Assembly (NCBI GenBank): GCA_964493895.1
Contig: CAZBPY010000002.1
Span: 3,351-67,350 of the forward strand
Origin: an uncultured Candidatus Saccharibacteria bacterium
Lineage (GTDB): Bacteria > Patescibacteriota > Saccharimonadia > Saccharimonadales > JAGQNJ01
Length of the DNA stretch: 64,000 nucleotides
Reading direction: 5' to 3'
Positions within the stretch are counted from its first letter, which is position 1, and each line of letters begins with the position of its first letter. The notes under the pieces are model-generated. The model did not search any database. It was given only the letters and a program-made list of their open reading frames with translations, and had not been told where the DNA came from. The translations under genes and the position numbers were made by a program. Positions 3,076 through 44,014 of the stretch are shown here, piece by piece.

Positions 3076-4503
3076 TTACAGTGTATCATAAGCAGTTTGC
3101 AGTCGCTTTATGGAACGATTTTTGCCCAAAATAGCCAGTGTTTCCGCTAGTCCTGGACTAGCTGGCGCCTGAGTTATGGCAATCCTGATCAGACTAAACA
3201 GTACGGCCGGCTTTTGATCTGTTGTTTCTAACAACATGTTGAGCCGGTGCTGCAGCTTATCGGTTTCAAACTGACAGTCTTTCAAACTATCAATACTTCT
3301 TTGCAGTAAGCCAGCCAAATCATCTTTGTCCAGCTTTTTGAGCTGTTTGTTGGTCTCGATTAATTCACTTTGTACCGGCAAATCATCGGTGAAAAAGAAC
3401 CAAGTTAGTTCGGGCAGCTCGGCCAAATACTTGAGACGCTCTTGTACCGAGGCCAGGACTTTTTTTCGATATTCTTCATCATAATCACCTGCTTGTTTGG
3501 GCCAATAATCGGCTGCCAACTCAAACAGGTTTTCTAAAGGCAGCTGACGAATAAAATGGCCGTTGACCCACAAAAGGTGGCGTTCTTCAAAACGAGCCCC
3601 GCTTTTGCCTATTCGGTCCAGTGAAAACTTGGCGATTAACTCGTCTTTGGTGAAAACTTCTTGTTCGGTGCCGTCATTCCAGCCAAGTGTGGCTAAAAAG
3701 CTCATCATGGCTTCCGGCAAAAACCCTTGGCGGGCATAGTCCAAGATATCTTTGGCGCCATCGCGTTTGCCGAGCTTTTTGTTGCCCTGGGGTCCCAGGA
3801 TATGCGGCACGGTAGCAAAAATCGGTCTGTCCAAACCGAAGGCTTCATACAGGTTCAGATAATTTGGCATGCTGGCCAAAAATTCTTGCCCGCGAATAAT
3901 GTGAGTGATTTCCATCTCGGAGTCGTCAACGATATGAGCAAAATTGTACGTAGGATATCCATCAGACTTCATAAGAACAAAGTCATCAATAACTTCGGGA
4001 CCTGCCTGCATCGACCCCATTACAACATCATCCCACTGATAGGCTTTAGGGTCGGACTTAAAGCGCAGAGGCTGGCTGCCGTCCCACTTCGGCGGGTTGC
4101 TTGGCCGATGGTTGCGGTACAAAAACGGCTTTTTATCATTCTGAGCCTGTTCGCGGAAAGCTTGAACTTCCTGCGGTGAATAAGGATCGGCATAAGCCCG
4201 GCCGCTGTCGATCAGTTTCTGGGTCCATTTTTTGTAGATATCCAGTCGCTCACTCTGCTTGTAAGGATTGTGCAAACCGCCCTTATCCGGTCCTTCGTCC
4301 CAATCAATTCCCAACCAATTTAGTGAATCGATGATGTGCTGTCCAGATCCTTCTACTTCGCGGCTCTTGTCGGTATCTTCCAGTCGCAGAATGAATTGCC
4401 CGGTGTTTTGCCGAGCTACCAACCAGGCAAACAGGGCCGTGCGAACGCCGCCGACATGTATATAGCCCGTCGGACTGGGCGCAAAACGCGTTCTAACTTT
4501 CAT
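3076..4503 (-). CDS. gltX: glutamate--tRNA ligase
   Basis: 475 aa. Class I HIGH region RFAPSPTGYIHVGG, KMSKS-like KLGKRDG, and GluRS-like sequence over the full length. Confidence 0.95.
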   Translation of the reverse strand: MKVRTRFAPSPTGYIHVGGVRTALFAWLVARQNTGQFILRLEDTDKSREVEGSGQHIIDSLNWLGIDWDEGPDKGGLHNPYKQSERLDIYKKWTQKLIDSGRAYADPYSPQEVQAFREQAQNDKKPFLYRNHRPSNPPKWDGSQPLRFKSDPKAYQWDDVVMGSMQAGPEVIDDFVLMKSDGYPTYNFAHIVDDSEMEITHIIRGQEFLASMPNYLNLYEAFGLDRPIFATVPHILGPQGNKKLGKRDGAKDILDYARQGFLPEAMMSFLATLGWNDGTEQEVFTKDELIAKFSLDRIGKSGARFEERHLLWVNGHFIRQLPLENLFELAADYWPKQAGDYDEEYRKKVLASVQERLKYLAELPELTWFFFTDDLPVQSELIETNKQLKKLDKDDLAGLLQRSIDSLKDCQFETDKLQHRLNMLLETTDQKPAVLFSLIRIAITQAPASPGLAETLAILGKNRSIKRLQTAYDTL

Positions 4504-21078: not shown

Positions 21079-21163
21079 ATCAGCTCATTATGCCACTGTA
21101 ACCGAACGGTGTCAATATACTGACCGAAGTTCTTGGGAGTTTATTCTGCCAATTCCTTGATTT

Positions 21164-21189
21164 GTCCAGAACTTTTTTGCTGTTCTGAC
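21164..21189. repeat. hairpin GTCCAGAAC-N9-GTTCTGAC, related to the stems at 24870 and 26525
   Basis: The stem sequence is shared with the two terminator hairpins of the tRNA-Asn region. The flanks indicate inverted orientation relative to those copies. Confidence 0.6.
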
Positions 21190-21242
21190 TTTATACTGAA
21201 TCAAATGAAGCTAATTTTCGTGTATAGGTCTATACTGGTAGT

Positions 21243-22603
21243 ATGACTGATACTAAACGTTTGGTGCTTTGGATTTGTATTCTGGCGTCGTTTGTGCCGT
21301 TTCTTGATGGCTCTGTAGTGACCGTGGCGCTGCCGGCAATCACCCGCGATCTAGGTGGAGGCTTCGTGCTACAACAGTGGGTTGTCAATGCTTACGCTAT
21401 CACGCTGGGCGCGTTTATGTTGATAGCTGGGTCACTGGCTGACCTCTACGGGCGTCAGCGGATTATGAGGTATGGGTTGATTTTGTTTGGCGTGACATCG
21501 GTGTTGTGCGCTGTGGCTCCGACAGGAGGATTTCTGATTTTCGCCCGCGGCGCCCAGGGTCTGGCTGGCGCGATGTTGGTTCCCAGCTCATTGGCGCTCA
21601 TCATGGCTTATTTCAAGAAGACAGGGGCTGGCAAGGCTATCGGCAGCTGGACGGCCTGGACGGGGATGGCATTTATCATTGGTCCTTTGGTCGGTGGTAT
21701 GTTGGTCGATGTTGCGTCATGGCGGATGGTATTTGCCATTAACATCATTCCGATCGCCATAAACCTGTACATGTTGTCACGGCTTGATTTTGCGGAAGAG
21801 CTGCAATTAAAGGTAAGCCTAGATATGACTGGGGCATTGCTGGGTGCTGTGGGGCTGGGCGGAGTCGTATATGGCCTAATTGAGCAGTCGCGATTGGGGT
21901 GGGCCGATCCGTCGTTTTTGGTTCGATTATTGTCGGTGTAGTCGCGCTGGCTGGTTTTATCTGGCACGAGCGGCGCATCAAGCAACCCATGTTGCCACTT
22001 GGCCTTTTTCGAGTGCGAAATTTTTGGGTTGGTAACGTGGCGTCATTCGCTATATACGCCGGGCTGGCACTGGCAACCTTTGCTATTTCTATCTTTGTTC
22101 AGCAGGTTGGCGGTTACACTGCCTTCCAGGCCGGATTGGCGCTGCTGCCTATAACTATGATAATGCTTTTCTTGTCGTCACGCTTTGGGGAATGGGCTGG
22201 GCGCGTCGGGCCGCGGATGTTTATGACAGCAGGTCCATTGATTGCTGCCGCTGGATTTATGACCATGTATTTTGTCGATAAATCGGCTAAGTACTGGCAA
22301 CTCCTGCCAGGAATTTTGTTACTTGGTCTTGGGTTATCGGTGACGGTCGCACCGCTGACGACAGCGATTCTCGGCGCCATTAGCGATCAGCAATCCGGGA
22401 TCGCCTCGGCGATCAACAATGCCGTTACGCGTATAGCTGGGCTCATTGCCATAGCTGCGGTTGGTTCGCTGGTCGGTCAAACGCTCGGTCTGCCGGGCTT
22501 TCGGTCTATCGTGTTGGTCATGACCGGATTGATGGTAGTAGGGGGTGTTGTTTCAGCGATTGGAATCGTAAACCATCCCCCAAAATCTCACAAACCGACG
22601 TAA
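21243..22603 (+). pseudogene. MFS transporter (DHA2/EmrB-like) split by a single frameshift
   Basis: ORFs 21243..21941 and 21899..22603 are the N and C halves of one MFS protein. Adding one T to the T5 run at 21915-21919 gives ..LGWADPSFFGSIIVGVVALAGFIWHERR.. and a single ORF of about 453 aa. Confidence 0.8.
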
Positions 22604-22859
22604 TAGGCCTCCACTCGGCTGGTGCTTTTATACATTTCCAGTGCTTGGGGGTAGTTTTTGTAAAGACTCTTCCACCACTGGCGGTACGTCAAACATGACT
22701 CTCGGGGTCTTGGCGCGCTGTCTTCGGTCAGTTAGTAGTTTTTAGATTGGCTGCACTTTCCCGTTAGCGCTACTGCTCCCCACCGCTTATTGTGTCCGCC
22801 AGAACTTTTTTGCTATGGCTCCATATAGCAGCCATGAGCCTCTAAGATATAATGAGACT

Positions 22860-23435
22860 ATGAAATTAATATACTTTGCAACATCAAATAAGGAAAAAAT
22901 GCAAATTGCTCAAACTATCTGCGCAGAAGCAGGCTTAACGGTTAAGCCAGTAGCTTTGGACATCGACGAAATTCAAGGCGAGGATCCCGAGGTGATCGTA
23001 CGAGATAAGGCGAGGCGGGCTCATGAACAGCTTGGGATGCCTGTAGTAGTCAGTGATGATACATGGGATATCCCGTCGCTGAAGGGATTTCCTGGTGCCT
23101 ACATGAAATCAATTAACTATTGGTTTAGGCCGGTTGATTTCTTGAGACTTATGGATGGAATTGAAGATAGGCGCATTATTTTGCATCAGTATCTAGCATA
23201 TACGGATGGCAATATGACAGAAGTTTTCAGAAATGACGTTGCAGGTGAAATAGCTAACGAAGCACGTGGCAAAAGCGAAAAGTCACCAAATATGACCATT
23301 ACTGTGCTTGATTCTGACAACGGTAAAACCATTGCCGAAGTACTTGACCAAGACGAAGACGCAGTGATTGCCCGTTATAAAGACCGACCTGATGCATGGC
23401 ACGGTTTTGTTAAATGGTACAAAAATATCCAATAG
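22860..23435 (+). CDS. non-canonical purine NTP pyrophosphatase (Ham1/ITPase family)
   Basis: Start moved to the ATG at 22860 (MKLIYFATSNKEKM). DIDEIQGEDPE and SDDTWDIPSLKGFPGAYMK are family-typical. TATAAT at 22848-22853 lies 6 nt upstream. Confidence 0.75.
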   Translation: MKLIYFATSNKEKMQIAQTICAEAGLTVKPVALDIDEIQGEDPEVIVRDKARRAHEQLGMPVVVSDDTWDIPSLKGFPGAYMKSINYWFRPVDFLRLMDGIEDRRIILHQYLAYTDGNMTEVFRNDVAGEIANEARGKSEKSPNMTITVLDSDNGKTIAEVLDQDEDAVIARYKDRPDAWHGFVKWYKNIQ

Positions 23436-23577
23436 CGTGAATACTTGCTGGATAGCCAATAAAATATATACTCTTGGCTCAGCATACCAGCCATGAATCC
23501 GACAACAGAGGTGAAGGACAAAAATTAGATACGAACATTGATCCTATATAATATTAGTATAAAAAGGAGCGAGTACG

Positions 23578-23997
23578 ATGAAGACATCTCTACACAGCTA
23601 CATTAGTTTTAATGGCAATGCGTCTGAAGCAATTGAATTTTACCGATCGGTTTTTGACGGAGAGGTAACCAGCAATACTTTTGGTGATTTTGCAGAGAGT
23701 ATGCCAAGTGCGCCAGAGGACAAAGATAAAATAATGCATGCGTTCATCAAAAACGATAAAGGCGTGGAATTTATGCTATCAGACATGCCAAGCAGTATGA
23801 CTTACTCTGATGGTCAAAGAGTAACCCTATGTCTTAACGGCGAAGACGAAGTGACCTTACGCGTGTATTGGGACAGGCTCACTGTTGATGGCAAGATTGA
23901 TGTGCCTTTTGAAAAAGCCCCATGGGGCGATATTTATGGTGCCTTGACCGACAAATTCGGCGTCAATTGGATGATCAACGTCGGCAAAGCCGAGTGA
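23578..23997 (+). CDS. VOC/glyoxalase-fold protein (PhnB/YjdN-like)
   Basis: 139 aa. C-terminal APWGDIYGALTDKFGVNWMIN is typical of the PhnB-like 3-demethylubiquinone methyltransferase-domain family. SD AAGGAG lies upstream. Confidence 0.7.
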   Translation: MKTSLHSYISFNGNASEAIEFYRSVFDGEVTSNTFGDFAESMPSAPEDKDKIMHAFIKNDKGVEFMLSDMPSSMTYSDGQRVTLCLNGEDEVTLRVYWDRLTVDGKIDVPFEKAPWGDIYGALTDKFGVNWMINVGKAE

Positions 23998-24048
23998 TCA
24001 TTGATGTCGATCAATCTAGGAGCTCGGTTTATCCTTAAGCTTTTTGGG

Positions 24049-24096
24049 TTGGCTCACAACGATAGAGAAAGTTACAGCTGCTATAAAGCACGATTT
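24049..24096. repeat. 48-bp cassette-junction element, copy B
   Basis: TTGGCTCACAACGATAGAGAAAGTTACAGCTGCTATAAAGCACGATTT. It lies between the convergent VOC and racemase genes, 11 nt from the racemase stop. Confidence 0.85.
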
Positions 24097-24107
24097 TGTA
24101 ATCTAAA

Positions 24108-24797
24108 TTATGTAGTTATTTCTCGAACTGTCGCATCTGCAAGGATTTTCATAGTATCGAACATAGGTACTTGCTGACTGCTTGGAAGTAGTAGCTGTAG
24201 ATCGGTGCATGCCAAAGCAATGCAGTCCACACCCTGGGCTGCAAGACCATATGCTACTTCAAGAATGTCTTCTCTATCCTTATTAAGATGCTGGCCTTCA
24301 ATTAGGCGCTGGATGATCTTATCCATCTTCGCTTTCTGTAATTCATCAGGTGTAACGAATTCGATAGTGGCTTCTGCCAGTTTTCTTTCGTAGACGTGGT
24401 TTGCAACAGTTGCCGATGTGGAAATAAGACCAATTTTCGTGAACCCATTGGCCTTAAGGTGAGAGATTGTTTCCTCGACGATACTTAACACTGGAATGTT
24501 GACGGCTTCTCTAATTTCATTGATAAAAACATGTAGAGAGTTGCATGGCATTACTAGAAAATCTACGCCTGTTTTCTCTAGTCTTTGAGCTTCCGTTACT
24601 AAGAAAGGTATGTACCGCTCTTTGCCAGTGTTGCTTTCGATTAGATCGCGTTCGACTTCGAGTAATAAGGGTACGCTCGAAACGACAACCAAAGGGCGTT
24701 GAGGAAGGCCAAGTTTCTGACAGCCAAAAATAATTTCAAGGTAAAACTCTGCTGTTGTTTCAGGCCCGAGGCCACCAATAACTCCAACTGATTTCAT
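24108..24797 (-). CDS. aspartate/glutamate racemase family protein
   Basis: 229 aa. MKSVGVIGGLGPETT, MPCNSLH and LACTDL supply the two catalytic Cys regions of the Asp/Glu racemase fold. Confidence 0.85.
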   Translation of the reverse strand: MKSVGVIGGLGPETTAEFYLEIIFGCQKLGLPQRPLVVVSSVPLLLEVERDLIESNTGKERYIPFLVTEAQRLEKTGVDFLVMPCNSLHVFINEIREAVNIPVLSIVEETISHLKANGFTKIGLISTSATVANHVYERKLAEATIEFVTPDELQKAKMDKIIQRLIEGQHLNKDREDILEVAYGLAAQGVDCIALACTDLQLLLPSSQQVPMFDTMKILADATVREITT

Positions 24798-24869
24798 AAT
24801 ACTAATAGTAGCGCATTTTCTCTGTAAATGGATACTAGATTTGGCTTCAACTCTACTCTGGGTATGAAA

Positions 24870-24898
24870 AAGTCAGAACCTAATATCAGTTCTGACTT
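24870..24898 (-). terminator. rho-independent terminator-like hairpin (duplicate of the tRNA-Asn terminator)
   Basis: The minus strand reads AAGTCAGAAC-tgatattag-GTTCTGACTT followed by TTTCAT. It is part of the 73-bp duplicated module 24846-24918. Confidence 0.5.
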
Positions 24899-24911
24899 CA
24901 ACTTGTTTGGC

Positions 24912-24957
24912 TTGGCTTACAACGATAGAGGAAGTCATAACTGCGATCAAGCAGGAT
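24912..24957. repeat. 48-bp cassette-junction element, copy C
   Basis: TTGGCTTACAACGATAGAGGAAGTCATAACTGCGATCAAGCAGGAT. It ends 3 nt before the stop of ORF 24961..25323. Confidence 0.85.
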
Positions 24958-24960
24958 ACT

Positions 24961-25323
24961 CTAGCTTTCGTGAGTTGACCTTGCTTCATTCACTGCTGCT
25001 CTAATATCTTCTGGGCTGATTCCGAATTTACGAGGAATAGGAATCGTGAGTTCGATTTCAGTTCCTGTGGATATAGTGCCCAGGACCCGCATTAACGTTA
25101 TGCCTATGATTTTGCCCTCTCTGTCAAAGCCTACTACATGACCTTCAGGCGTCCATTTGCCCGAACCGCCACCTTCATTCGGAGTTGAATTACTGAGATA
25201 TAAAGTATCATGCCCCTCTAGGTAATCAACTTCGGAAAAGGAAAAAGGCCCAACATGAAAAAGTCCATCATCTTCTGATCTGATTAGTCTTAAAGAAGGT
25301 ATTTCACCACCAAAATCTACCAT
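24961..25323 (-). CDS. hypothetical protein, possibly DUF2283-like
   Basis: 120-aa ORF. HDTLYLSN...GHVVGFDREGKIIGITLM weakly resembles DUF2283. Confidence 0.45.
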   Translation of the reverse strand: MVDFGGEIPSLRLIRSEDDGLFHVGPFSFSEVDYLEGHDTLYLSNSTPNEGGGSGKWTPEGHVVGFDREGKIIGITLMRVLGTISTGTEIELTIPIPRKFGISPEDIRAAVNEARSTHES

Positions 25324-25360
25324 ACAGTAAAAATATCACAAAAGTGGTATTTAGTCAAAC

Positions 25361-25408
25361 TTGGCTCACAATAATAGAGGAAGTCATAACTGTAATTAAG
25401 CAAGATTT
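25361..25408. repeat. 48-bp cassette-junction element, copy D
   Basis: TTGGCTCACAATAATAGAGGAAGTCATAACTGTAATTAAGCAAGATTT. It lies 3' of ORF 25432..25782. Confidence 0.85.
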
Positions 25409-25431
25409 GCTGGGAAACAAATACATAGAAA

Positions 25432-25782
25432 CTATTGTTGGGAAGGCATGACGGATACCTCTAAAGTGCCAATCACGTCTGAAAGTAATTCAGATGCGTC
25501 AGGATGGCTTGGTCTAAGAATCTCCCAGTAAGCAGAACTAAGTTGTTGGCATTCAGCCGTTTCACATCCCCCAAGATGTATGCCTACTTCTAAATCTATC
25601 GGAAATCTTGGCTCAGGATCATTGGCGACGTACATACTTCTAGCCATGATAAACCACTGCTGACGTGCTTCATCGCATGGTATCTCAGTACGAATCTCGC
25701 CAGCTTCAATTGCGTCAAGGCTTCGCTCAATTTGTTCTTCACGCTTAGCTCCCCAGCCGACAAATGGGTCCTGTTCACTCAT
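25432..25782 (-). CDS. hypothetical protein (116 aa)
   Basis: Start moved to the ATG at 25782 (MSEQDPFVGW). The track start at 25818 is TTG and lies 5 nt from repeat copy E (25823-25870). No family recognised. Confidence 0.45.
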   Translation of the reverse strand: MSEQDPFVGWGAKREEQIERSLDAIEAGEIRTEIPCDEARQQWFIMARSMYVANDPEPRFPIDLEVGIHLGGCETAECQQLSSAYWEILRPSHPDASELLSDVIGTLEVSVMPSQQ

Positions 25783-25822
25783 AAAACAAAAAATATCAAC
25801 ATTAGTGATATTTTGCAAATGC

Positions 25823-25870
25823 TTGGCTCAGCACAATAGAGGAAGTTATAACTGTAATAAAGCGAGATTT
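25823..25870. repeat. 48-bp cassette-junction element, copy E
   Basis: TTGGCTCAGCACAATAGAGGAAGTTATAACTGTAATAAAGCGAGATTT. It lies 3' of the RibD_C-like gene. Confidence 0.85.
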
Positions 25871-25930
25871 AACTCATGTAAACTAGAATTAGCTTGATCT
25901 ATTTAACTCAAATTCGCATTCAGTAGAGCA

Positions 25931-26473
25931 CTATTTTACAACTTGGAAACGTAAATGCGTTTCACCAGCAAACGCTGATGTGTCTAATCTTTTAAGCTGG
26001 ATCTTCTTTCCCAGTCCCTCGAACAATGAAATTCCCTCGCCAAGTAACAAAGGTTCTACATCAAGTATGATTTCATCAACTAGTCCTAGCTTCAAGCACT
26101 GCCGTGAGATACTACCGCCAAGTAAACTGACATTTTTATCGCCAGCGGCCACTTTTGCTTTTTCAACTGCTAGCTTTATATCGTCCACGACGAAATTATA
26201 TGTTACACCATCCTTCTCTACTGGCTCATGAGCTTCGTGAGTCATGAGAAATACAGGAACTTTTACAGTGCCTCCATATGGCACGCCATCATCTTCGATA
26301 GTATTTGTTTTGTTTGATCCACCGACTATGGCTCCAATTTCGGCTGTTACTTTATTGACTACTGCATAATCTTCGTCAACCGCTTCGAGATCCTGCATCC
26401 AGCTCATGTCGCCATCGACACCTGCCATAAATCCATCGAGTGTTATTGTTGCGTGAATAAATACTTTTCCCAT
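25931..26473 (-). CDS. dihydrofolate reductase-like (RibD C-terminal domain) family protein
   Basis: 180 aa. MGKVFIHATITLDGFMAG, LLGGSISRQ and DEIILDVEPLLLGEG are typical of RibD_C family reductases. Confidence 0.8.
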   Translation of the reverse strand: MGKVFIHATITLDGFMAGVDGDMSWMQDLEAVDEDYAVVNKVTAEIGAIVGGSNKTNTIEDDGVPYGGTVKVPVFLMTHEAHEPVEKDGVTYNFVVDDIKLAVEKAKVAAGDKNVSLLGGSISRQCLKLGLVDEIILDVEPLLLGEGISLFEGLGKKIQLKRLDTSAFAGETHLRFQVVK

Positions 26474-26524
26474 AGAACTATCATAGCAAAAGAGGCGGTT
26501 TCAATTCTACTTAGGGTATATAAA

Positions 26525-26554
26525 AAGTCAGAACCATCTTCACAGTTCTGACTT
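26525..26554 (-). terminator. rho-independent terminator of tRNA-Asn
   Basis: The minus strand reads AAGTCAGAAC-tgtgaagatg-GTTCTGACTT followed by TTTATAT, starting 15 nt after the tRNA 3' end. Confidence 0.6.
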
Positions 26555-26568
26555 TGTCTGTTCCGGCT

Positions 26569-26643
26569 TGGCTCCCGGGGCCGGACTCGAACCGGCAACC
26601 TTGAAGTTAACAGCTTCCTGCTCCACCATTGAGCTACCCGGGA
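26569..26643 (-). tRNA. tRNA-Asn (anticodon GTT), encoded CCA
   Basis: Reverse complement reads TCCCGGGTAGCTCAATGGTGGAGCAGGAAGCTGTTAACTTCAAGGTTGCCGGTTCGAGTCCGGCCCCGGGAGCCA. Cloverleaf fits, with anticodon loop CTGTTAA. Confidence 0.9.
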
Positions 26644-26691: not shown

Positions 26692-27288
26692 CTAAATTAG
26701 GGTTACTAGGCGATCTAGGACGCGTTGGTAATGACGATCAATTCCATTTGGAGTGAATTCGTCACTATGCACGAAACGGATTCCACCCATCTCGCGAGCC
26801 TCCCTTTTCTCCAGAGAGGCTACTTCTTCCCAGCTAGCCAACGATATGCCTTCATCGATCACATAAGTGGCATTGCCGAAAAGTGGGTTTTCGGCAACCG
26901 CGATGGTGCGCTGATCATCCCTGATCGTCAAGACCATATAGGGCAGCACTGTGGCTAGGGACCCAGGACGTCCACGCATCAGCTCTACTTGATAACCGCT
27001 AGACCTTAGGACATCGCCAAGTTCTATCAGACCGGCTAATCTTTCCCAGTTGACTTTGTGTGAATGGGTACTACCAACGTTCGTTTCAAAATCGCGTTTA
27101 ATGTCATCGACTCGTGTTCCCGGAGGAAAGATTCTTACATCTAAGAACTTCGCCCCTTTTAGTAATTCAATTGGAGCCGATGGGGTACCGGGTTCATTAC
27201 TGGGTTCTTCCTCGAGCGGTGTCTCGAGCCGCGGGTTCGGCCTCCGACACCGGTTCTGGTTCAATAGCAGGAAGTTCTTGAACTGCAT
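26692..27288 (-). CDS. hypothetical protein (198 aa; start uncertain)
   Basis: Long ORF whose first 92 nt overlap the end of the upstream 634-aa ORF in another frame. I saw no SD before the ATG at 27288. No family recognised. Confidence 0.45.
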   Translation of the reverse strand: MQFKNFLLLNQNRCRRPNPRLETPLEEEPSNEPGTPSAPIELLKGAKFLDVRIFPPGTRVDDIKRDFETNVGSTHSHKVNWERLAGLIELGDVLRSSGYQVELMRGRPGSLATVLPYMVLTIRDDQRTIAVAENPLFGNATYVIDEGISLASWEEVASLEKREAREMGGIRFVHSDEFTPNGIDRHYQRVLDRLVTLI

Positions 27289-37810: not shown

Positions 37811-39340
37811 ATGAAAGATATTAGCGTCAAAGAACTTAGCCAGGATGTGCGTCAGGCCATTGAAGAGTTAAAAAGCAGTCCCAGCATTGAAAGGGTCGGC
37901 GTAGTAACTCGGGTTGGTGACGGCATTGCCTGGATTTACGGCTTGTTTAACACTGGCTATAGCGAAATGATTGAGATTGACGGTGTTGACGGCGGCAAAG
38001 TGCCAGCTTTTGCCCTCAACCTGATGGAGGATGAAATCGGAGCTGTTATCCTGGGTGACGACACTAATGTTAGAGCCGGCGCCAAGGTCCGCCTGACCGG
38101 CAAAATATTGGAAGTTCCGGTTGGTCCAGAGCTAGTCGGTCGAGTGGTTGATCCGTTGGGCAATCCGCTAGATAACAAAGGCGCTATAAAAACCAAACAC
38201 ACTAGTCCGATTGAGCGGGCGGCCCCGGGCGTTTTAGATAGAAAGTCAGTTCACGAACCACTGATGACCGGACTGATGGCCATTGATTCAATGGTGCCGA
38301 TCGGCCGTGGTCAGCGGGAGTTGATTATCGGTGACCGTCAAACCGGTAAAACAGCTGTGGCTGTCGACACAATGATCAACCAGCACCGCCAAGGCACAGG
38401 TGTTATAAACATCTATGTGGCGGTCGGACAGAAGTTGTCGAAAGTGGCTCGCCTTGCCGAGCGGCTAAAGCGCGAAGGCGTCATGGACCAAACCATAATT
38501 GTAGCCACCAGCGCGTCCGATCCGGCTAGTTTGCAGTACCTAGCTCCTTACGCTGGTACGGCCATGGGCGAATATTTCCGCGACAACGGTCAGCATGCTT
38601 TGATTATTTATGATGATTTGTCCAAGCACGCCACTGCCTATCGCCAGATGTCGCTTCTGCTGCGCCGCCCGCCGGGCCGTGAAGCCTATCCAGGTGATGT
38701 TTTCTATCTGCACTCTCGCCTGTTGGAACGCTCAGCTAAGTTGTCGGATGCCAAGGGCGGCGGATCGCTGACAGCTTTGCCGATTATTGAAACCCAAGCC
38801 GGCGACATCAGCGCCTACATCCCGACCAACGTGATTTCTATTACCGACGGCCAGATTTTTATGGAGACTTCCCTGTTCTACCAAGGCATTAGACCGGCTA
38901 TATCGGTTGGTCTATCTGTGTCGCGTGTTGGTGGTTCGGCCCAGACCAAGGCCGTCAAATCGGTGGCCGGAAACTTGCGCCTAAGCCTGGCTCAGTTCCG
39001 CGAATTGGCGGCTTTCTCACAGTTCTCAACTGATCTGGATCCGGAAACAAAGCAGACTATCGAGCGTGGCCAACGCCTAACCGAACTGCTCAAACAGCCG
39101 CAGTATTCACCGCTGGCAGTCTGGCAACAAACAGCTTGCTTACTGGCGGCTAATGAAGGAGCTTTTGACTCTGTGCCCGTCGAGTCGATCAAGAAGGCTC
39201 AGGATGCCCTATTGAATACCCTTGGGACTCAGCACAAAAAGGAAATGAAAGTTCTGGACAAGGGTGACAAGCCAGATGATAAATTGCGCGACATAATACT
39301 AAAAGCAGCAAAATCAGTGGCTAAGGAGTATCAAGAGTAA
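37811..39340 (+). CDS. atpA: F0F1 ATP synthase subunit alpha
   Basis: 509 aa. P-loop GDRQTGKT and alpha-subunit-like sequence throughout. Confidence 0.97.
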
Positions 39341-40017
39341 TGAGACACGAGGCGCCAGGCATAGGGTTGTTCGATGTAGCTGACATTCATGCCGGCATTG
39401 GCGGTGAGTCTTTAGCTGTGGCTCCTCCCGCTGAACTAAAATTGTATCCTGGCCAACAATTGGAGCTCGAACAACATGGTCGAGAATTTATCGAAGCGGC
39501 GCGTGATCGTCGGATTGAAATTCTGTCAAGCACTTCCAATACTCAATCTGAAATGCCGCCTCTAGGAGCCCAAGGTGTGCTGTTTGCCCAGGGTGATAAT
39601 AAAAACGAACGACCGGCTATTCATACTAGGGTCTCTGGAGCAATTCGAGACTTGCTGGCTGAAGACCAGGACGCTCTGGAAATTATCGAAGCCATGGATA
39701 AAGCCTTCAGCCACCCGGAGGTAACCGTCGAGAAATTTAGCAAACTGCTGTTTACAAATAGCCGGGCTAAGCAGCTTCAAATTCATGAAATATCTGAGAC
39801 CCCAGAATTTATTGTGGTCAGCGAAGTCGCCGAACAAATTGCTGATGCTTACATCCAACAGTTACTGCTGCTAATGAATGAAGTCCCAGAAACCCAGGCT
39901 GCCGACCGTCTGGCTCGCCAGATCATTATGATGACTATGTACTATGCTTTTAAAAATTGTATGGCATTAACGCACAACAATATGCTTTTACCAACGAAGG
40001 TTGCTATCGATGGCTAA
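39340..40017 (+). CDS. hypothetical protein inserted between atpA and atpG (225 aa)
   Basis: The ATG overlaps the atpA stop (TAATG) and the stop overlaps the atpG ATG by 8 nt. The ORF is uninterrupted and fills the whole gap. No TM segment or motif recognised. Confidence 0.6.
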   Translation: MRHEAPGIGLFDVADIHAGIGGESLAVAPPAELKLYPGQQLELEQHGREFIEAARDRRIEILSSTSNTQSEMPPLGAQGVLFAQGDNKNERPAIHTRVSGAIRDLLAEDQDALEIIEAMDKAFSHPEVTVEKFSKLLFTNSRAKQLQIHEISETPEFIVVSEVAEQIADAYIQQLLLLMNEVPETQAADRLARQIIMMTMYYAFKNCMALTHNNMLLPTKVAIDG

Positions 40018-40876
40018 TACGATTGCCCTGAAAAGGCGCATCACCAGCGTTAAGAATACCAAGCAGATTACTAAGGCTATGGAGCTGGTGGCGGCCTCTA
40101 AAATGCGCCGGGCCCAAGAACAAACTCTGCGTACCCGCGATTACGCTATCATGGCTGGACAGATTCTGACTCGTCTTCGACAGCTGACTGATGTTAGTAA
40201 ACACCCTCTGTTTGTGCAGCGCCCTGTCAAAAACAAACTTTACATAGTGGTTACCAGTGATCGGGGTCTGGCTGGAGCCTACAACAGTAATGTCCTGCGG
40301 CAGCTGTCTAAAAGTCTGCGTCAGGACGCTGATGATAAAATTTCGACCCAACTTATTATTGTTGGCAAGCAGGCTGCCCGATTTGTATCTAGATTAGAAG
40401 ACGTCAATGCTCTAGCTGCTTATACTGAGTTTCCTGAACGCCCTACAGCTAATGACATTCGGCCAATTCTAAATACTATCACCGAGATGTACACTAAGCG
40501 CCAGATTGATGCTGTCGATGCTATTTTTACCGACTATAAGTCCAGCATCACCCAAGTGGTCAAGGTACAGCGGGTTTTGCCGGCAGCCTTTACTGCTGAA
40601 CCAATCTCTCACGATCTCGGCGAAGCAGATTTTGAACCTTCGCCAGAAGAAGTCCTGGCGTCGGTGACTTTGCGATTAATCGAAGCTCAGCTGACCCAGA
40701 TATTCTATGAAGCCCAGGCCTCAGAGCAGTCCATGCGAATGATGGCTATGAAGAATGCTACTGATAACGCCAATGAATTAGTCGATGATCTTACCCTGGC
40801 CTTCAATACAGCCAGACAAGCAGCTATAACACAAGAATTAGCCGAAATAACCGGCGGAGCGGAGGCCATCAAATGA
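40010..40876 (+). CDS. atpG: F0F1 ATP synthase subunit gamma
   Basis: Start at the ATG at 40010 (MANTIALKRRITSVKNTKQITKAMELVAASKMRRAQ). C-terminal RQAAITQELAEITGGAEA. Confidence 0.93.
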   Translation: MANTIALKRRITSVKNTKQITKAMELVAASKMRRAQEQTLRTRDYAIMAGQILTRLRQLTDVSKHPLFVQRPVKNKLYIVVTSDRGLAGAYNSNVLRQLSKSLRQDADDKISTQLIIVGKQAARFVSRLEDVNALAAYTEFPERPTANDIRPILNTITEMYTKRQIDAVDAIFTDYKSSITQVVKVQRVLPAAFTAEPISHDLGEADFEPSPEEVLASVTLRLIEAQLTQIFYEAQASEQSMRMMAMKNATDNANELVDDLTLAFNTARQAAITQELAEITGGAEAIK

Positions 40877-41448
40877 ACACAGTTAACCAATATGAACTGG
40901 AAAAACCGGCTCACCTAACAGATGAGTATGAACTTTACGGCCCCAACAATTTGTTGGTAGTGTCAGGCAAGCTCGCAGGCTTTGCTGCTGATTCAGCTAT
41001 TTACTTAACCGAAAGAATTAATTCAATAGCTGCCGCCAACAGTTTACCTGAATCTGCTAGCTGCCCTGATGCTACTTATCAATATAATTCACAGTGGGAT
41101 ACTCATCCCATAAAGGGTATTTCAGCACGACGACGTTTGCGACAAGAATGGCCCCAAAATATTAATCATATTTTAGAAGAGCGAGCCGAAGGCGACATAG
41201 CGCTAATACCTAACGGACCAGGATTCACCATTGCAGCGGCTTTGATTTTAGGACAGGCAGTCGGAATGGGTAGAGGCGATGTTTACCTATTCAAACGGAG
41301 AGTGCCAGATATGTATCGAAGGAACCCACGGGTACAGTCAGTAAATGATACGTCAAACTTGTTTGGCTGGCGAGCTCCCAACTCTGGCAAGGCTCATCAC
41401 GAATCCTTGAAAGCAACACCTGAGAATTTTGTGGGGGCAACTAGATGA
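40873..41448 (+). CDS. hypothetical protein inserted between atpG and atpD (191 aa)
   Basis: ATGA overlap with the atpG stop. Uninterrupted ORF. No motif recognised. Confidence 0.6.
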   Translation: MNTVNQYELEKPAHLTDEYELYGPNNLLVVSGKLAGFAADSAIYLTERINSIAAANSLPESASCPDATYQYNSQWDTHPIKGISARRRLRQEWPQNINHILEERAEGDIALIPNGPGFTIAAALILGQAVGMGRGDVYLFKRRVPDMYRRNPRVQSVNDTSNLFGWRAPNSGKAHHESLKATPENFVGATR

Positions 41449-41520
41449 CCATCGCCGAAACAGATATGACCAAAGATAGTGCATACCAAGTATACTAAAG
41501 AGATAAATAGGAGTTAGTTT

Positions 41521-41832
41521 ATGAATAAACCAGAAGAAGGGCCGCAGGCATTTCGAGAGATTGCCGATAGACAAAGGCCAGCACCGGTTGGTAGAACTCG
41601 GGTGCCAGCGCGATCATACCAAGATGCAGTGGAAGAAAGCGACCCCGGCTTGGTGGGCGCCGATGTGCCTACCAAAGATTCTAAACAAGAAGACACGGTT
41701 ATGGATTTATCCGTCTGGGGGACTGCTGCTGGTTACCTAACTGGCGATCCTGCACTGTTAGCAGCTCGCGGGCACACTGATGAAGAAATACAAAATATTC
41801 AGATTGAAATCGCAAAAAGAAGAGGAGAATAA
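41521..41832 (+). CDS. hypothetical protein immediately upstream of atpD (103 aa)
   Basis: SD TAGGAG lies 7 nt upstream. The stop TAA directly abuts the atpD ATG at 41833. Acidic and probably disordered. No motif recognised. Confidence 0.5.
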   Translation: MNKPEEGPQAFREIADRQRPAPVGRTRVPARSYQDAVEESDPGLVGADVPTKDSKQEDTVMDLSVWGTAAGYLTGDPALLAARGHTDEEIQNIQIEIAKRRGE

Positions 41833-43217
<1,385 letters not shown>

Positions 43218-43218
<1 letters not shown>

Positions 43219-43589
43219 TGCCCGAACAGGATTCGTTTACTCCTGAAGACGTTGTGATAGTCGCCGAGGCGGCGGCAGTTGAGGCTGGGCGTTACCCGGA
43301 TGCTCCGTCTACTACTCTCGTCATCAGGAATGTGCTAGATGCCCTTGGCCTGGCAGAGAATCCTGATGAATTACCGGTTGAAACTGCTGATAACGTCAAA
43401 GAAATCCTTGAAACTTACGCCAGAGATGTTCGCGAGCACATGGCTGAAGTTATGGCTCGTACACTTGGTAACACTGCAATCATTGAGGATGCAAATAATT
43501 TTCAGCCAGAGGTGGCATCTGATGAAGAATCTAGGGTATTGGATGCCAGTAATAAATTTGCCAGTGACCAGGGAGATAAGACTGAATGA
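43218..43589 (+). CDS. hypothetical acidic protein inserted between atpD and atpC (123 aa)
   Basis: TAATG overlap with the atpD stop and ATGA overlap with the atpC start. No motif recognised. Confidence 0.55.
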
Positions 43590-44014
43590 TTCACTTTGAA
43601 CTTGTCACTCTAAATGGAAAGAAGTTTGGCGGCAACGTTCATGAAGTAGTATTGCCGACGCCGCAAGGTCAGATTGCTATCTTCCCTCACCACATGCCGC
43701 TGGTCAGCATTGTTAGTCCAGGCATGATAAAAGTCCGCGAAAGACCGGATGATCCCGACGACTTTATGAAAGTCTATGCTACTAATGGTGGTGTCATCGA
43801 GATAGCTTATAATCAAATCAGGGTTTTAGTTGACGAAGCTGATAGCTCTGACGAAATTAACGAACAAGAAGCCCGCAAGGCTCATCAAGAAGCTTTAGAT
43901 CTAAGGAAAAATGCTAGGGACTTAGTGTCACTTGATCAGGCTCAGGGTTTGATAGATCGGACTTCTACCCGTTTGAAAGTGGCTGAACTGCGGCGTCATC
44001 GTCGCAGTCGCTAA
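43586..44014 (+). CDS. atpC: F0F1 ATP synthase subunit epsilon
   Basis: 142 aa. N-terminal beta-sandwich-like MIHFELVTLNGKKF..LPTPQGQIAIFPHHMPLVS and a C-terminal helical region. Confidence 0.9.
   Translation: MIHFELVTLNGKKFGGNVHEVVLPTPQGQIAIFPHHMPLVSIVSPGMIKVRERPDDPDDFMKVYATNGGVIEIAYNQIRVLVDEADSSDEINEQEARKAHQEALDLRKNARDLVSLDQAQGLIDRTSTRLKVAELRRHRRSR

Follow-up and report, generated by a model that had tools for sequence, protein, structure and literature searches.

A tRNA-Asn-anchored array of small gene cassettes with a conserved ~50-nt terminal element in Saccharibacteria

Does the row of small genes that follows the tRNA-Asn gene of an uncultured Candidatus Saccharibacteria bacterium consist of movable cassettes, and what might move them? 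The locus lies in a 64,000-nt stretch of contig CAZBPY010000002.1 (positions 3,351 to 67,350 of the forward strand; assembly GCA_964493895.1), the whole of which is called the window here and provides the coordinates for all positions. Saccharibacteria are ultrasmall, host-dependent organisms with streamlined genomes. A first-pass annotation of the window had described seven single-gene modules in tandem next to tRNA-Asn, all junctions of which were said to carry the tRNA 3'-end core TTGGCTC, and had read them as the result of repeated insertion at a tRNA 3' end or as an integron-like platform. Comparison with other genomes revealed a family of ~50-nt cassette-terminal elements (EL) that is associated exclusively and in the same orientation with tRNA-Asn, and a modular exchange of cassettes between genomes at an exchange point of at most 9 nt. 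The co-orientation, the recurring cassettes, the narrow breakpoints and the heads shared between tRNA and EL junctions fit that earlier reading, and we consider it probable (roughly 0.6), judging from sequence comparison, that the arrays represent an integron-like, tRNA-anchored cassette platform built by site-specific recombination with a putative recombinase acting in trans. Full-text literature searches returned no description of a tRNA-Asn-anchored EL cassette system.

The element and the tRNA-Asn 3' end

The anchor of the array, tRNA-Asn (gtt), was identified by ARAGORN at 26569..26643 on the minus strand (Rfam tRNA, 63.7 bits), and the plus-strand core positions lie where the first-pass annotation had placed them. 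Read on the tRNA strand, the gene ends in ...CCCGGGAGCCA followed by AG, and its 3' end ...GGGAGCCA together with these next two bases makes up the shared core GAGCCAAG (26574 to 26567, minus strand); the plus-strand CTTGGCTC at 26567-26574 accordingly comprises the last acceptor-stem bases, the discriminator, CCA and two flanking bases of tRNA-Asn. A promoter-like TTGAAT-17-TATAAT is found near the gene at 26683-26655. Along the array TTGGCTC occurs on the plus strand at 23474, 24049, 25361, 25823 and 26568, with TTGGCTT at 24912 and only TGGCTC at 22816. Taken alone, TTGGCTC is weak evidence: it was observed 28 times in the window versus 11.5 times expected (a 2.4-fold excess), the majority of copies being intragenic, such as the one at 25608 within an ORF. 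The copies also show a strand bias, 16 of 19 up to 26.6 kb being on the plus strand and 8 of 9 after 28.9 kb on the minus strand, with the switch near the tRNA-Asn locus, for which gene orientation or codon usage (GAG-CCA-A) or replication strand bias may be responsible.

A repeat search detected a longer, 49-nt repeat with four copies at 24048, 24911, 25360 and 25822 that are 78-88% identical (family D1), and a 19-nt pattern taken from the centre of EL matched only these four sites in the window, where 0.01 matches were expected by chance. A hidden Markov model (HMM) of EL, which like that of the ~75-nt hairpin block (HP block) discussed below was trained on other genomes with the window left out, gave exactly four window matches with E values from 1.2e-16 to 5.1e-13, followed by the next match at E 0.29. 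All four copies lie on the minus strand: EL copy 1 at 25821..25874 (E 1.2e-16), ending in GAGCCAAG; copy 2 at 25360..25411 (E 8.8e-16); copy 3 at 24911..24960 (E 5.5e-15), with the core TAAGCCAAG; and the most diverged, copy 4, at 24049..24100 (E 5.1e-13), with the core GAGCCAAC. The first-pass annotation had itself asked whether the core is similarly dense elsewhere; within the window the 7-mer is indeed common, but the extended repeat is confined to this locus. On the tRNA strand the EL consensus reads gctAAATCttGCTTaATTacAGTTATAACTTCCTCTATcGTtGTGAGCCAAG, abbreviated AAATC..GCTTaATT.cAGTTATAACTTCCTCTATcGTtGTGAGCCAAG, with near-maximal information across GTTATAACTTCCTCTAT.GT.GTGAGCCAA. The final 8 bases of EL (GAGCCAAG) match the end of tRNA-Asn, and the similarity to the tRNA stops there.

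When species-representative genomes were scanned with the pattern TTGGCTNANNNNNATAGAGRAAGT, 96 stretches were obtained, of which about 78 contain the full element; nearly all of these are labelled Saccharibacteria, Saccharimonadales, Saccharimonadia or Patescibacteria, and the rest of the 96 come from unrelated phyla and show the pattern match only, with no full element. A metagenome scan contributed at least 120 further stretches. The pooled set comprised at least 201 EL-bearing loci with at least 287 EL copies in 1.17 Mb, mostly on contigs of metagenome-assembled genomes (MAGs) or metagenomes; loci compared are designated by L-numbers. Among the matches listed, the ELs of a locus are on one strand in every case, and tRNA-Asn, found in 39 of the at least 201 loci, invariably precedes the first EL in the same orientation; one Gln and one Met tRNA, the only others among them, are both downstream of ELs.

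The array of the window sits directly 3' of the intact tRNA-Asn gene. Genes upstream of tRNA-Asn (encoding SmpB, GT2 and a 370-413-aa GH-like protein) are conserved in several loci including the window, whereas the gene content downstream of it is different in almost every genome, which indicates a variable island joined at the tRNA to a conserved backbone. Likewise, the related genomes do not have the same genes in the same order, the arrangement that the first-pass annotation would have attributed to vertical synteny. The lower GC content that it had suspected from spot counts was borne out by sliding-window analysis for most of the island, with values of 0.402-0.437 in six consecutive 600-nt intervals (22801-26400) versus mostly 0.48-0.53 in the flanks, a difference of 5-8 points, but not for the MFS module, which has 0.52-0.53. 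All four ELs fall inside the low-GC part. Directly upstream of tRNA-Asn in the window a 198-aa ORF (26692-27288, minus strand) overlaps the 3' end of a 634-aa ORF by 92 nt; neither ORF is recurrent beside other arrays, and the 198-aa ORF, for which no Pfam family and no homologue beside other arrays were found, may not be a real gene.

The strong conservation of the primary sequence of EL, combined with its lack of structure, makes a double-stranded protein-binding site the best fit from the sequences, although an unstructured RNA signal is also conceivable. DNA folds of both strands of all four window ELs were no better than those of shuffled sequences (z -1.06 to +1.9), and mutual information among 118 distinct ELs revealed no Watson-Crick covariation, the correlated columns being restricted to positions right of the core, where head classes differ; a hairpin of the attC type was therefore rejected. 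A known RNA family was rejected as well, since Rfam at E <= 1 detected only tRNA-Asn in the window region and, at gathering thresholds, only tRNAs and one unrelated S-adenosylmethionine (SAM) riboswitch in 18 loci. Neither reading frame nor ATG is kept between copies on inspection, which excludes a coding sequence or ORF start. A decayed 3' half of tRNA-Asn was discarded for EL because the likeness ends after 8 nt, but is kept as the reading of the 23474 junction and of L060 and L048, which are described below. Three IMG/VR viral scans for EL yielded chance partial matches only.

Modular exchange of cassettes at a point of at most 9 nt

On the tRNA strand the arrays follow the order tRNA-Asn - GAGCCAAG - head - gene(s) - EL - GAGCCAAG - head - gene(s) - EL. 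In 120 distinct segments between boundaries the median length was 1,062 nt (interquartile range 702-1,862), 61 of them contain one ORF (cut-off at least 80 aa), and 179 ORFs are co-oriented with the tRNA versus 53 in the opposite orientation (binomial p = 4e-17). The cargo is highly diverse, as 746 ORFs from the genome loci fell into 582 clusters and 111 within-array proteins matched 122 Pfam families. The commonest are AAA_33/zeta-toxin/CPT-like kinases, His_Phos_1, Ham1, DUF1801, peptidases, methyltransferases, ADH and CdiA_C, and NUDIX proteins and a Cu-type P-type ATPase with a CsoR repressor are also found.

The heads that follow the core fall into several classes. The HP block, which constitutes the head at 29 of the 118 distinct EL junctions, consists of the core, a linker, a perfect terminator hairpin AAAGTCAGAAC..GTTCTGACTTTTT (also AAAGTCAGAAC..GTTCTGACTTT) and then TATACCC..TAGAATTGAAAC; its linker and hairpin-loop alleles look reshuffled. 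In the window, HP block 1 (26495..26566, minus strand; linker, AAAGTCAGAAC-N9-GGTTCTGACTTTTT, TATACCC..TAGAATTGAAAC; inverted repeat I5) is the head of the cassette with a RibD_C reductase gene, and HP block 2 (24842..24910, minus strand), a duplicate of this block downstream of tRNA-Asn, is the head of a racemase cassette. The HP-block HMM recognized them at 26495-26574 (E 6.9e-24) and 24842-24917 (E 1.2e-17), and repeat D3 in the second is 77% identical to 26543-26573. HP block 1 carries a -35-like TTGAAA (conserved as TTGAAAC at the block end) before RibD_C, with a promoter-like site at 26504-26477. Heads of class ii have GCATAAGCAC and then a covarying hairpin and T-run, those of class iii a GGTTAGAACCAAG..CAGAGG hairpin and those of class iv a GTATATATGTGACAAGAAGTCCAGTAAGCATTCACGCT hairpin. 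In promoter heads a TTGACA-17-TATAAT-like sequence starts 1-4 nt past the core and is followed within ~10 nt by ATG; since the total count in a promoter scan was not above that of shuffled sequences, this reading is suggestive only and derives from the recurrence of TTGACA-17-TATAAT-ATG right past the core in several genomes. At the array-distal flanks of L050, L088, L042, L010, L087 and L034 a terminator is often found behind the last core or behind the tRNA itself, and its stem takes in GAGCCAA..TTGGCTC, an inverted copy of the core; past these terminators lies a conserved motif resembling ..ATTCAAATCAGCGACC.., upstream of a ClpB-like gene, for which Rfam gave no match.

Exchange of cassettes became apparent from junctions that are identical on one side only. 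In 18 pairs of ELs from different loci, the sequences have at least 90% identity over cargo and EL and diverge at GAGCCA(A); examples are L010/L061, which are 100% identical up to the core, and the group L059/L082/L092/L192. The converse case, in which the same right flank is joined to different cassettes, was found in 9 pairs that represent six independent groups. In all six groups the ELs differ at polymorphic positions 10, 13 or 14 nt from the GAGCCAA end, showing that EL variation goes with the upstream cassette and placing the exchange point to the right of position 10 in three groups and of position 13/14 in the other three. The last core base (A/G/T), on the other hand, follows the right flank in L192_8495, L051, L203 and L192_9194. 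The EL at 8495 of L192 is a composite: up to and including position 2 it matches the left side of L059, and beginning with position 1 it matches the right side of L032_5565. With EL polymorphisms linked to the left cassette and the last core base linked to the right one, the exchange is confined to at most 9 nt, GTGAGCCA.

Moreover, the 37 distinct loci with a head directly after the GAGCCA of tRNA-Asn draw on the head classes that are also seen behind ELs, so that the tRNA end and EL are interchangeable as left partners. An HP block follows the tRNA in 13 of these 37 loci, a class ii head in L013, L133 and L144, class iii in L051, class iv in L075, and promoter heads in L008, L057, L125 and L154. 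The ..TTGACTAAATACCAC.. head of a 120-aa cassette that in the window follows an EL is found directly after tRNA-Asn in L177 and L181.

The first cassette of the window illustrates how such units recur. In L104 a RibD_C protein that is 95% identical (aa) is encoded in a unit with the same HP block and EL and is again first after tRNA-Asn, with differing upstream genes and next cassettes, and in L109 the RibD_C HP-gene-EL unit is placed behind two other units. RibD_C homologues with 70-73% identity are present in Paenibacillaceae, Jeotgalibacillus, Streptomyces and Arthrobacter, members of the Firmicutes and Actinobacteria; this similarity, unusually close for a Saccharibacteria gene, points to cargo exchange across phyla and suggests that the transfer was recent. 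Exact-protein look-ups found neither the RibD_C product nor the SmpB of the window on record. Cultivated Saccharibacteria grow on Actinobacteria (PMC10633639). A further RibD_C gene, 83% identical, lies at 1634-2224 of L107 (GCA_964550255.1) in a 20-kb island of ~35 small accessory genes that has no EL or HP block, one Y1_Tnp (IS200/IS605-type) gene and repeated promoter-like TTTGCTATCATAAG..ATG heads.

A different kind of event is apparent in L048, in which the last 18 nt of tRNA-Asn (ATCCAGTCGCCGGAGCCA) are displaced (oriented, ~3400-3425) and preceded by unrelated DNA. The fragment is followed by a ~4.4-kb block that is 100% identical to the tRNA-proximal cassettes of L051 (L051 2234-2251 compared), which belongs to another species-level genome. 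L048 thus speaks for a second, classical way of inserting at this tRNA, in which the tRNA end is duplicated.

A putative recombinase in trans, rival explanations and known systems

On the integron-like reading, the 3' end of tRNA-Asn (...GAGCCA|AG) would serve as the primary, attI-like site. Each cassette would begin with a head, which supplies a terminator hairpin, a promoter of its own or both; behind it would come one to a few accessory genes, usually in the orientation of the tRNA, and finally an EL. A trans-acting site-specific recombinase encoded elsewhere would exchange DNA inside the shared core and could excise a cassette between two cores as a circle with an EL-core-head junction; this circle would re-insert at the tRNA end or at another EL, and with the tRNA restored upon each insertion arrays would accumulate. 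In this scheme the exchange would be enzymatic, EL would act as a protein-binding arm and circular intermediates should exist. An identical overlap of 6-8 bp would suit a tyrosine recombinase, and the putative enzyme is possibly a housekeeping recombinase or a member of a new family.

Several points weigh against this interpretation. The tRNA and EL have just 8 nt in common, which leaves a common recognition logic unexplained. As the first-pass annotation had noted for tyrosine and serine recombinases in the window, no recombinase was found there or in the EL loci by Pfam, phmmer or box-II regex searches. Pfam gave no Phage_integrase-type match for cassette and flank ORFs, 67 window ORFs (for which the 25 commonest families were listed) and ten unannotated ORFs, and no recombinase among 111 array ORFs and 10 recurrent flank proteins; phmmer searches seeded with XerD and gamma-delta resolvase found no match in the window or the 1.17 Mb of EL loci; and a box-II motif regex returned nothing convincing in either, an insensitive check that also missed both XerD-like ORFs that phmmer detected in two unrelated gammaproteobacterial chance-match loci, its only XerD-like matches. 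Furthermore, although the core bases claimed for all junctions are present (reduced to TGGCTC at 22816), just four of the seven junctions are bona fide ELs, and MFS, Ham1 and VOC are bounded by degenerate or tRNA-fragment-like junctions. Junctions without EL are found at window positions 23474 and 22816 and near 9890 in L109, and some related islands have no EL at all (L107, L251-L254). The ELs of near-identical cassettes sometimes differ at several positions (L032/L053, L032/L092, L048/L051), which suggests that gene conversion or homologous exchange also takes place. Neither a circular cassette nor a pair of empty and occupied sites within one population was seen, and terminal overlaps indicative of circular contigs were absent from the loci checked, except in a trivial 70-nt record. 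Finally, in MAG and metagenome contigs individual junctions could be assembly joins at repeats; the same architecture was seen across hundreds of independent assemblies, and exact stretches common to ELs are only ~30 nt long.

The two gammaproteobacterial loci just mentioned, L012 and L074, are MAG sequences with chance pattern matches, each within ~2-6 kb of its XerD-like recombinase ORF. Their flanks are alike (ATTGGCTGATA.C.ATAGAG.AAGTC.TC.ATAAA.GC.CCTTT.TTT) and may represent an unrelated repeated site in those genomes.

The rival explanation that survives best, though we regard it as unlikely, is shuffling by homologous recombination, in which EL, tRNA and HP blocks would be short portable homology arms, kept for other reasons (as a transcript 3'-end signal, an operator or a terminator/promoter unit) and used in a RecA-dependent manner after natural transformation. 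Saccharibacteria are described in two studies (PMC10633639, PMC10187176) as naturally competent and able to integrate DNA by homologous recombination. Within the arrays HP blocks (~75 nt) and ELs (~50 nt) are repeated, and this explanation would also accommodate the absence of a detected recombinase. The mosaic ELs on near-identical cassettes and the apparently reshuffled HP-block alleles indicate that homologous recombination probably contributes. However, the exchange points are not scattered along the 50 nt of EL but fall in a stretch of at most 9 nt at its far right edge, tRNA and EL bear the same heads though they share only 8 nt, and homology arms alone would not conserve 50 nt across the sampled lineages of Saccharibacteria and Patescibacteria.

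It is more doubtful still that the arrays are debris of classical tRNA-targeting integrative elements. EL would then be the attP P-arm of an integrase-bearing family that crosses over at the tRNA-Asn 3' end, and the units would be integrase-less derivatives or remnants, either immobile or mobilised in trans by rare autonomous elements. The 3' ends of tRNA genes are classic integration sites, tandem arrays at tRNA genes are known for tycheposons (10.1101/2020.12.28.424599), and the displaced 18-nt tRNA fragment of L048 before a block identical to the tRNA-proximal cassettes of L051, as well as the degenerate tRNA-3'-like arms at window position 23474 and in L060, would be expected from such elements. 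In contrast, no integrase was detected in the window or the at least 201 loci, the units are mostly ~0.7-1.9 kb long (interquartile range) with most often one cargo ORF, EL is not derived from a tRNA past 8 nt, and it is absent from IMG/VR. Ordinary vertical synteny, an old stable operon-like cluster with the 7-mer present by chance or within terminators, would account for the window-wide, mostly intragenic excess of TTGGCTC and for the terminator-like hairpin or promoter after every EL, but we count it as refuted by the confinement of the extended element to the tRNA-Asn locus within the window, the differing downstream genes behind a conserved upstream flank, the lower GC content and the identical cassettes in different contexts.

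Compared with known systems, the platform proposed here is functionally closest to chromosomal integrons and clusters of attC sites lacking integron-integrases (CALINs). Both have one-directional arrays of short, mostly single-ORF, mostly co-oriented cassettes with diverse accessory cargo, a recombination-associated element at the cassette end that goes with the gene upstream of it, a fixed primary site at the head of the array, and cassettes common to genomes in different orders. CALINs, like the present arrays, lack an adjacent integrase, but their repeated element is attC, from which EL differs in having neither fold nor covariation. There is also no intI here and no attI beside an integrase, the primary site being a tRNA 3' end. 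While attC has a conserved structure with variable sequence and the core GTTRRRY, EL is a conserved linear sequence of ~50 bp with the core GAGCCA(AG) and no hairpin, and many cassettes here have their own promoter and terminator. Integrative mobile elements exploiting Xer (IMEX) at dif and the pdif modules of Acinetobacter are likewise small, integrase-less modules of one to few genes that occur with short recombination sites in many contexts, presumably moved by a housekeeping recombinase in trans. The dif and pdif sites are 28 bp long with two partly palindromic arms around a 6-bp spacer, and pdif modules alternate in orientation, whereas EL and core show no such dyad, all copies are direct, and the anchor is a tRNA gene and not the terminus or a plasmid dif. 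By inspection no dyad surrounds the mapped exchange point, the only palindrome, AGTTATAACT, being located ~25 nt to its left. The EL sequence ACTTCCTCTAT resembles what we take to be the XerC arm, ACTTCCTAGAA, of Bacillus subtilis dif, which can serve as a lead only.

The minimal mobile elements of Neisseria occupy a chromosomal slot between conserved sequences that holds different genes in each strain and is exchanged via long flanking genes. They share with the arrays the variable slot and naturally transformable hosts, but they form no multi-unit arrays with a dedicated 50-nt element and their exchange is not limited to a few bases. Features of the IS200/IS605 type are restricted to hairpins in some heads (29 of 118 junctions), with none in EL, and to the single Y1_Tnp gene in the EL-free island L107. 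The tycheposon arrays of Prochlorococcus also constitute a variable island at a tRNA 3' end, with tandem units, adaptive or accessory cargo and an intact tRNA (10.1101/2020.12.28.424599). Their size is like that of 10-20-kb phage-inducible chromosomal islands (PICIs), with cargo of up to at least 10 kb, an integrase of their own and often replication genes (10.1101/2020.12.28.424599). They are bounded by partial tRNA copies, in contrast to the ~0.7-1.9-kb, integrase-less units described here with a non-tRNA 50-nt element that shares 8 nt. Direct repeats of tRNA islands are typically tRNA copies of at least 15-20 nt; EL shares only GAGCCAAG, and true tRNA ends are occasional (18 nt in L048, degenerate at 23474 and in L060).

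The cassette array may be of a site-specific type with new kinds of sites and a tRNA anchor, and an independent invention if its catalyst is new. We give about even odds to the broader proposal that Saccharibacteria, and possibly other Patescibacteria, have their own, evolutionarily independent gene-capture system analogous to integrons, with tRNA-Asn as primary site, unstructured ~50-bp sites, self-contained heads with promoters and terminators, and a recombinase encoded elsewhere in genomes of ~1 Mb. If true, a lineage-wide platform of this kind at a single tRNA gene would account for a hotspot of gene flux. It would also be a second and independent answer to the 'integron problem', one with double-stranded, sequence-defined sites, and would give these reduced epibionts their main access to accessory genes, among them genes from other phyla. 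The cargo comprises detoxification and house-cleaning enzymes, kinases, metal resistance and toxin domains, some at least 70% identical to proteins of Firmicutes or Actinobacteria. The system would point to a recombinase still to be named, could provide a natural, probably neutral, site-specific landing pad for the engineering of the newly tractable Saccharibacteria, and the ~50-nt EL may be a simple sequence tag for their variable gene pool in metagenomes.

Modules of the window and neighbouring genes

The identities that the first-pass annotation had given to the seven modules were reproduced by Pfam: a frameshifted MFS gene, Ham1, a VOC protein, an Asp/Glu racemase, two ORFs with no Pfam match and RibD_C. 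The RibD_C, racemase and two family-less genes are clear cassette members. On the minus strand, cassette 1 contains the gene for the 180-aa RibD_C reductase (25931..26473; PF01872, 6.8e-14), and cassette 2 an ORF at 25432..25818 that encodes 128 aa from TTG or 116 aa from ATG at 25782 and has no Pfam family. Cassette 3 (24961..25358) has a promoter-like head, with TTGACT-17-TATTTT at 25358-25330 between the core of EL copy 2 and the ATG of its 120-aa ORF (24961-25323; no Pfam family), and cassette 4 encodes a 229-aa Asp/Glu/hydantoin racemase (24108..24797; PF01177, 1.5e-38).

Farther from the tRNA, the distal junctions at 23474 and 22816 and the partial hairpin at 21167 differ from the ELs and are weaker. 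The VOC/glyoxalase-family gene (23578..23997; PF00903, 2.3e-11) and the Ham1/ITPase-family gene (22815..23435; PF01725, 1.7e-17) are both on the plus strand and thus inverted relative to the array; VOC/glyoxalase homologues are found in or beside arrays at other loci, and Ham1 is recurrent as cargo in other arrays. In the junction between them (23420..23510, minus strand) the left arm, GTTGTCGGATTCATGGCTGGTATGCTGAGCCAAG, is similar to the 3' third of tRNA-Asn, aligning loosely with its T-arm and acceptor end, and is followed by a class iv head, GTATATAT..CCAG.AAG.ATTCACGCT..TGGA hairpin. In L060 a related tRNA-3'-like arm is followed by an HP block. The left arm at 23474 is probably a displaced, decayed tRNA end, and with this junction read as an old tRNA end, VOC, Ham1 and MFS can be viewed as an older layer pushed away from the tRNA. 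The degenerate junction at 22798..22845 (minus strand) consists of GGCTCATGGCTGCTATATGGAGCCAT and the 3' half of an HP-type hairpin and includes repeat D11, 82% identical to 23475-23496; its membership in the system is uncertain.

The frameshifted MFS transporter gene (21243..22603, plus strand) is made up of two overlapping ORFs, both PF07690, and is probably not a cassette of the EL system. The distal end of the variable region is marked by a partial HP-type hairpin at 21167..21194 on the minus strand (AAAGTCAGAAC AGCAAAAAA GTTCTGG; repeat family D4), which the HP-block HMM matched marginally (E 0.26). The MFS gene lies between 16-nt direct repeats, AGCAAAAAAGTTCTGG (21167-21182 and 22800-22815), that correspond to the loop and 3' arm of an HP-type hairpin, an arrangement that resembles the outcome of either insertion into a former cassette head or recombination inside it.

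Outside the island, an ATP synthase operon at 37811-44014, the gene roles of which were deduced from order, size and a Pfam summary, seems to be broken up by ORFs for which Pfam gave no convincing family. A 225-aa ORF (39340-40017) with only a sub-threshold Vps23_core match lies between the genes for the alpha- and gamma-type subunits, and a 191-aa ORF, which has no Pfam family, and a 103-aa ORF (40873-41832) lie between those for the gamma- and beta-type subunits.

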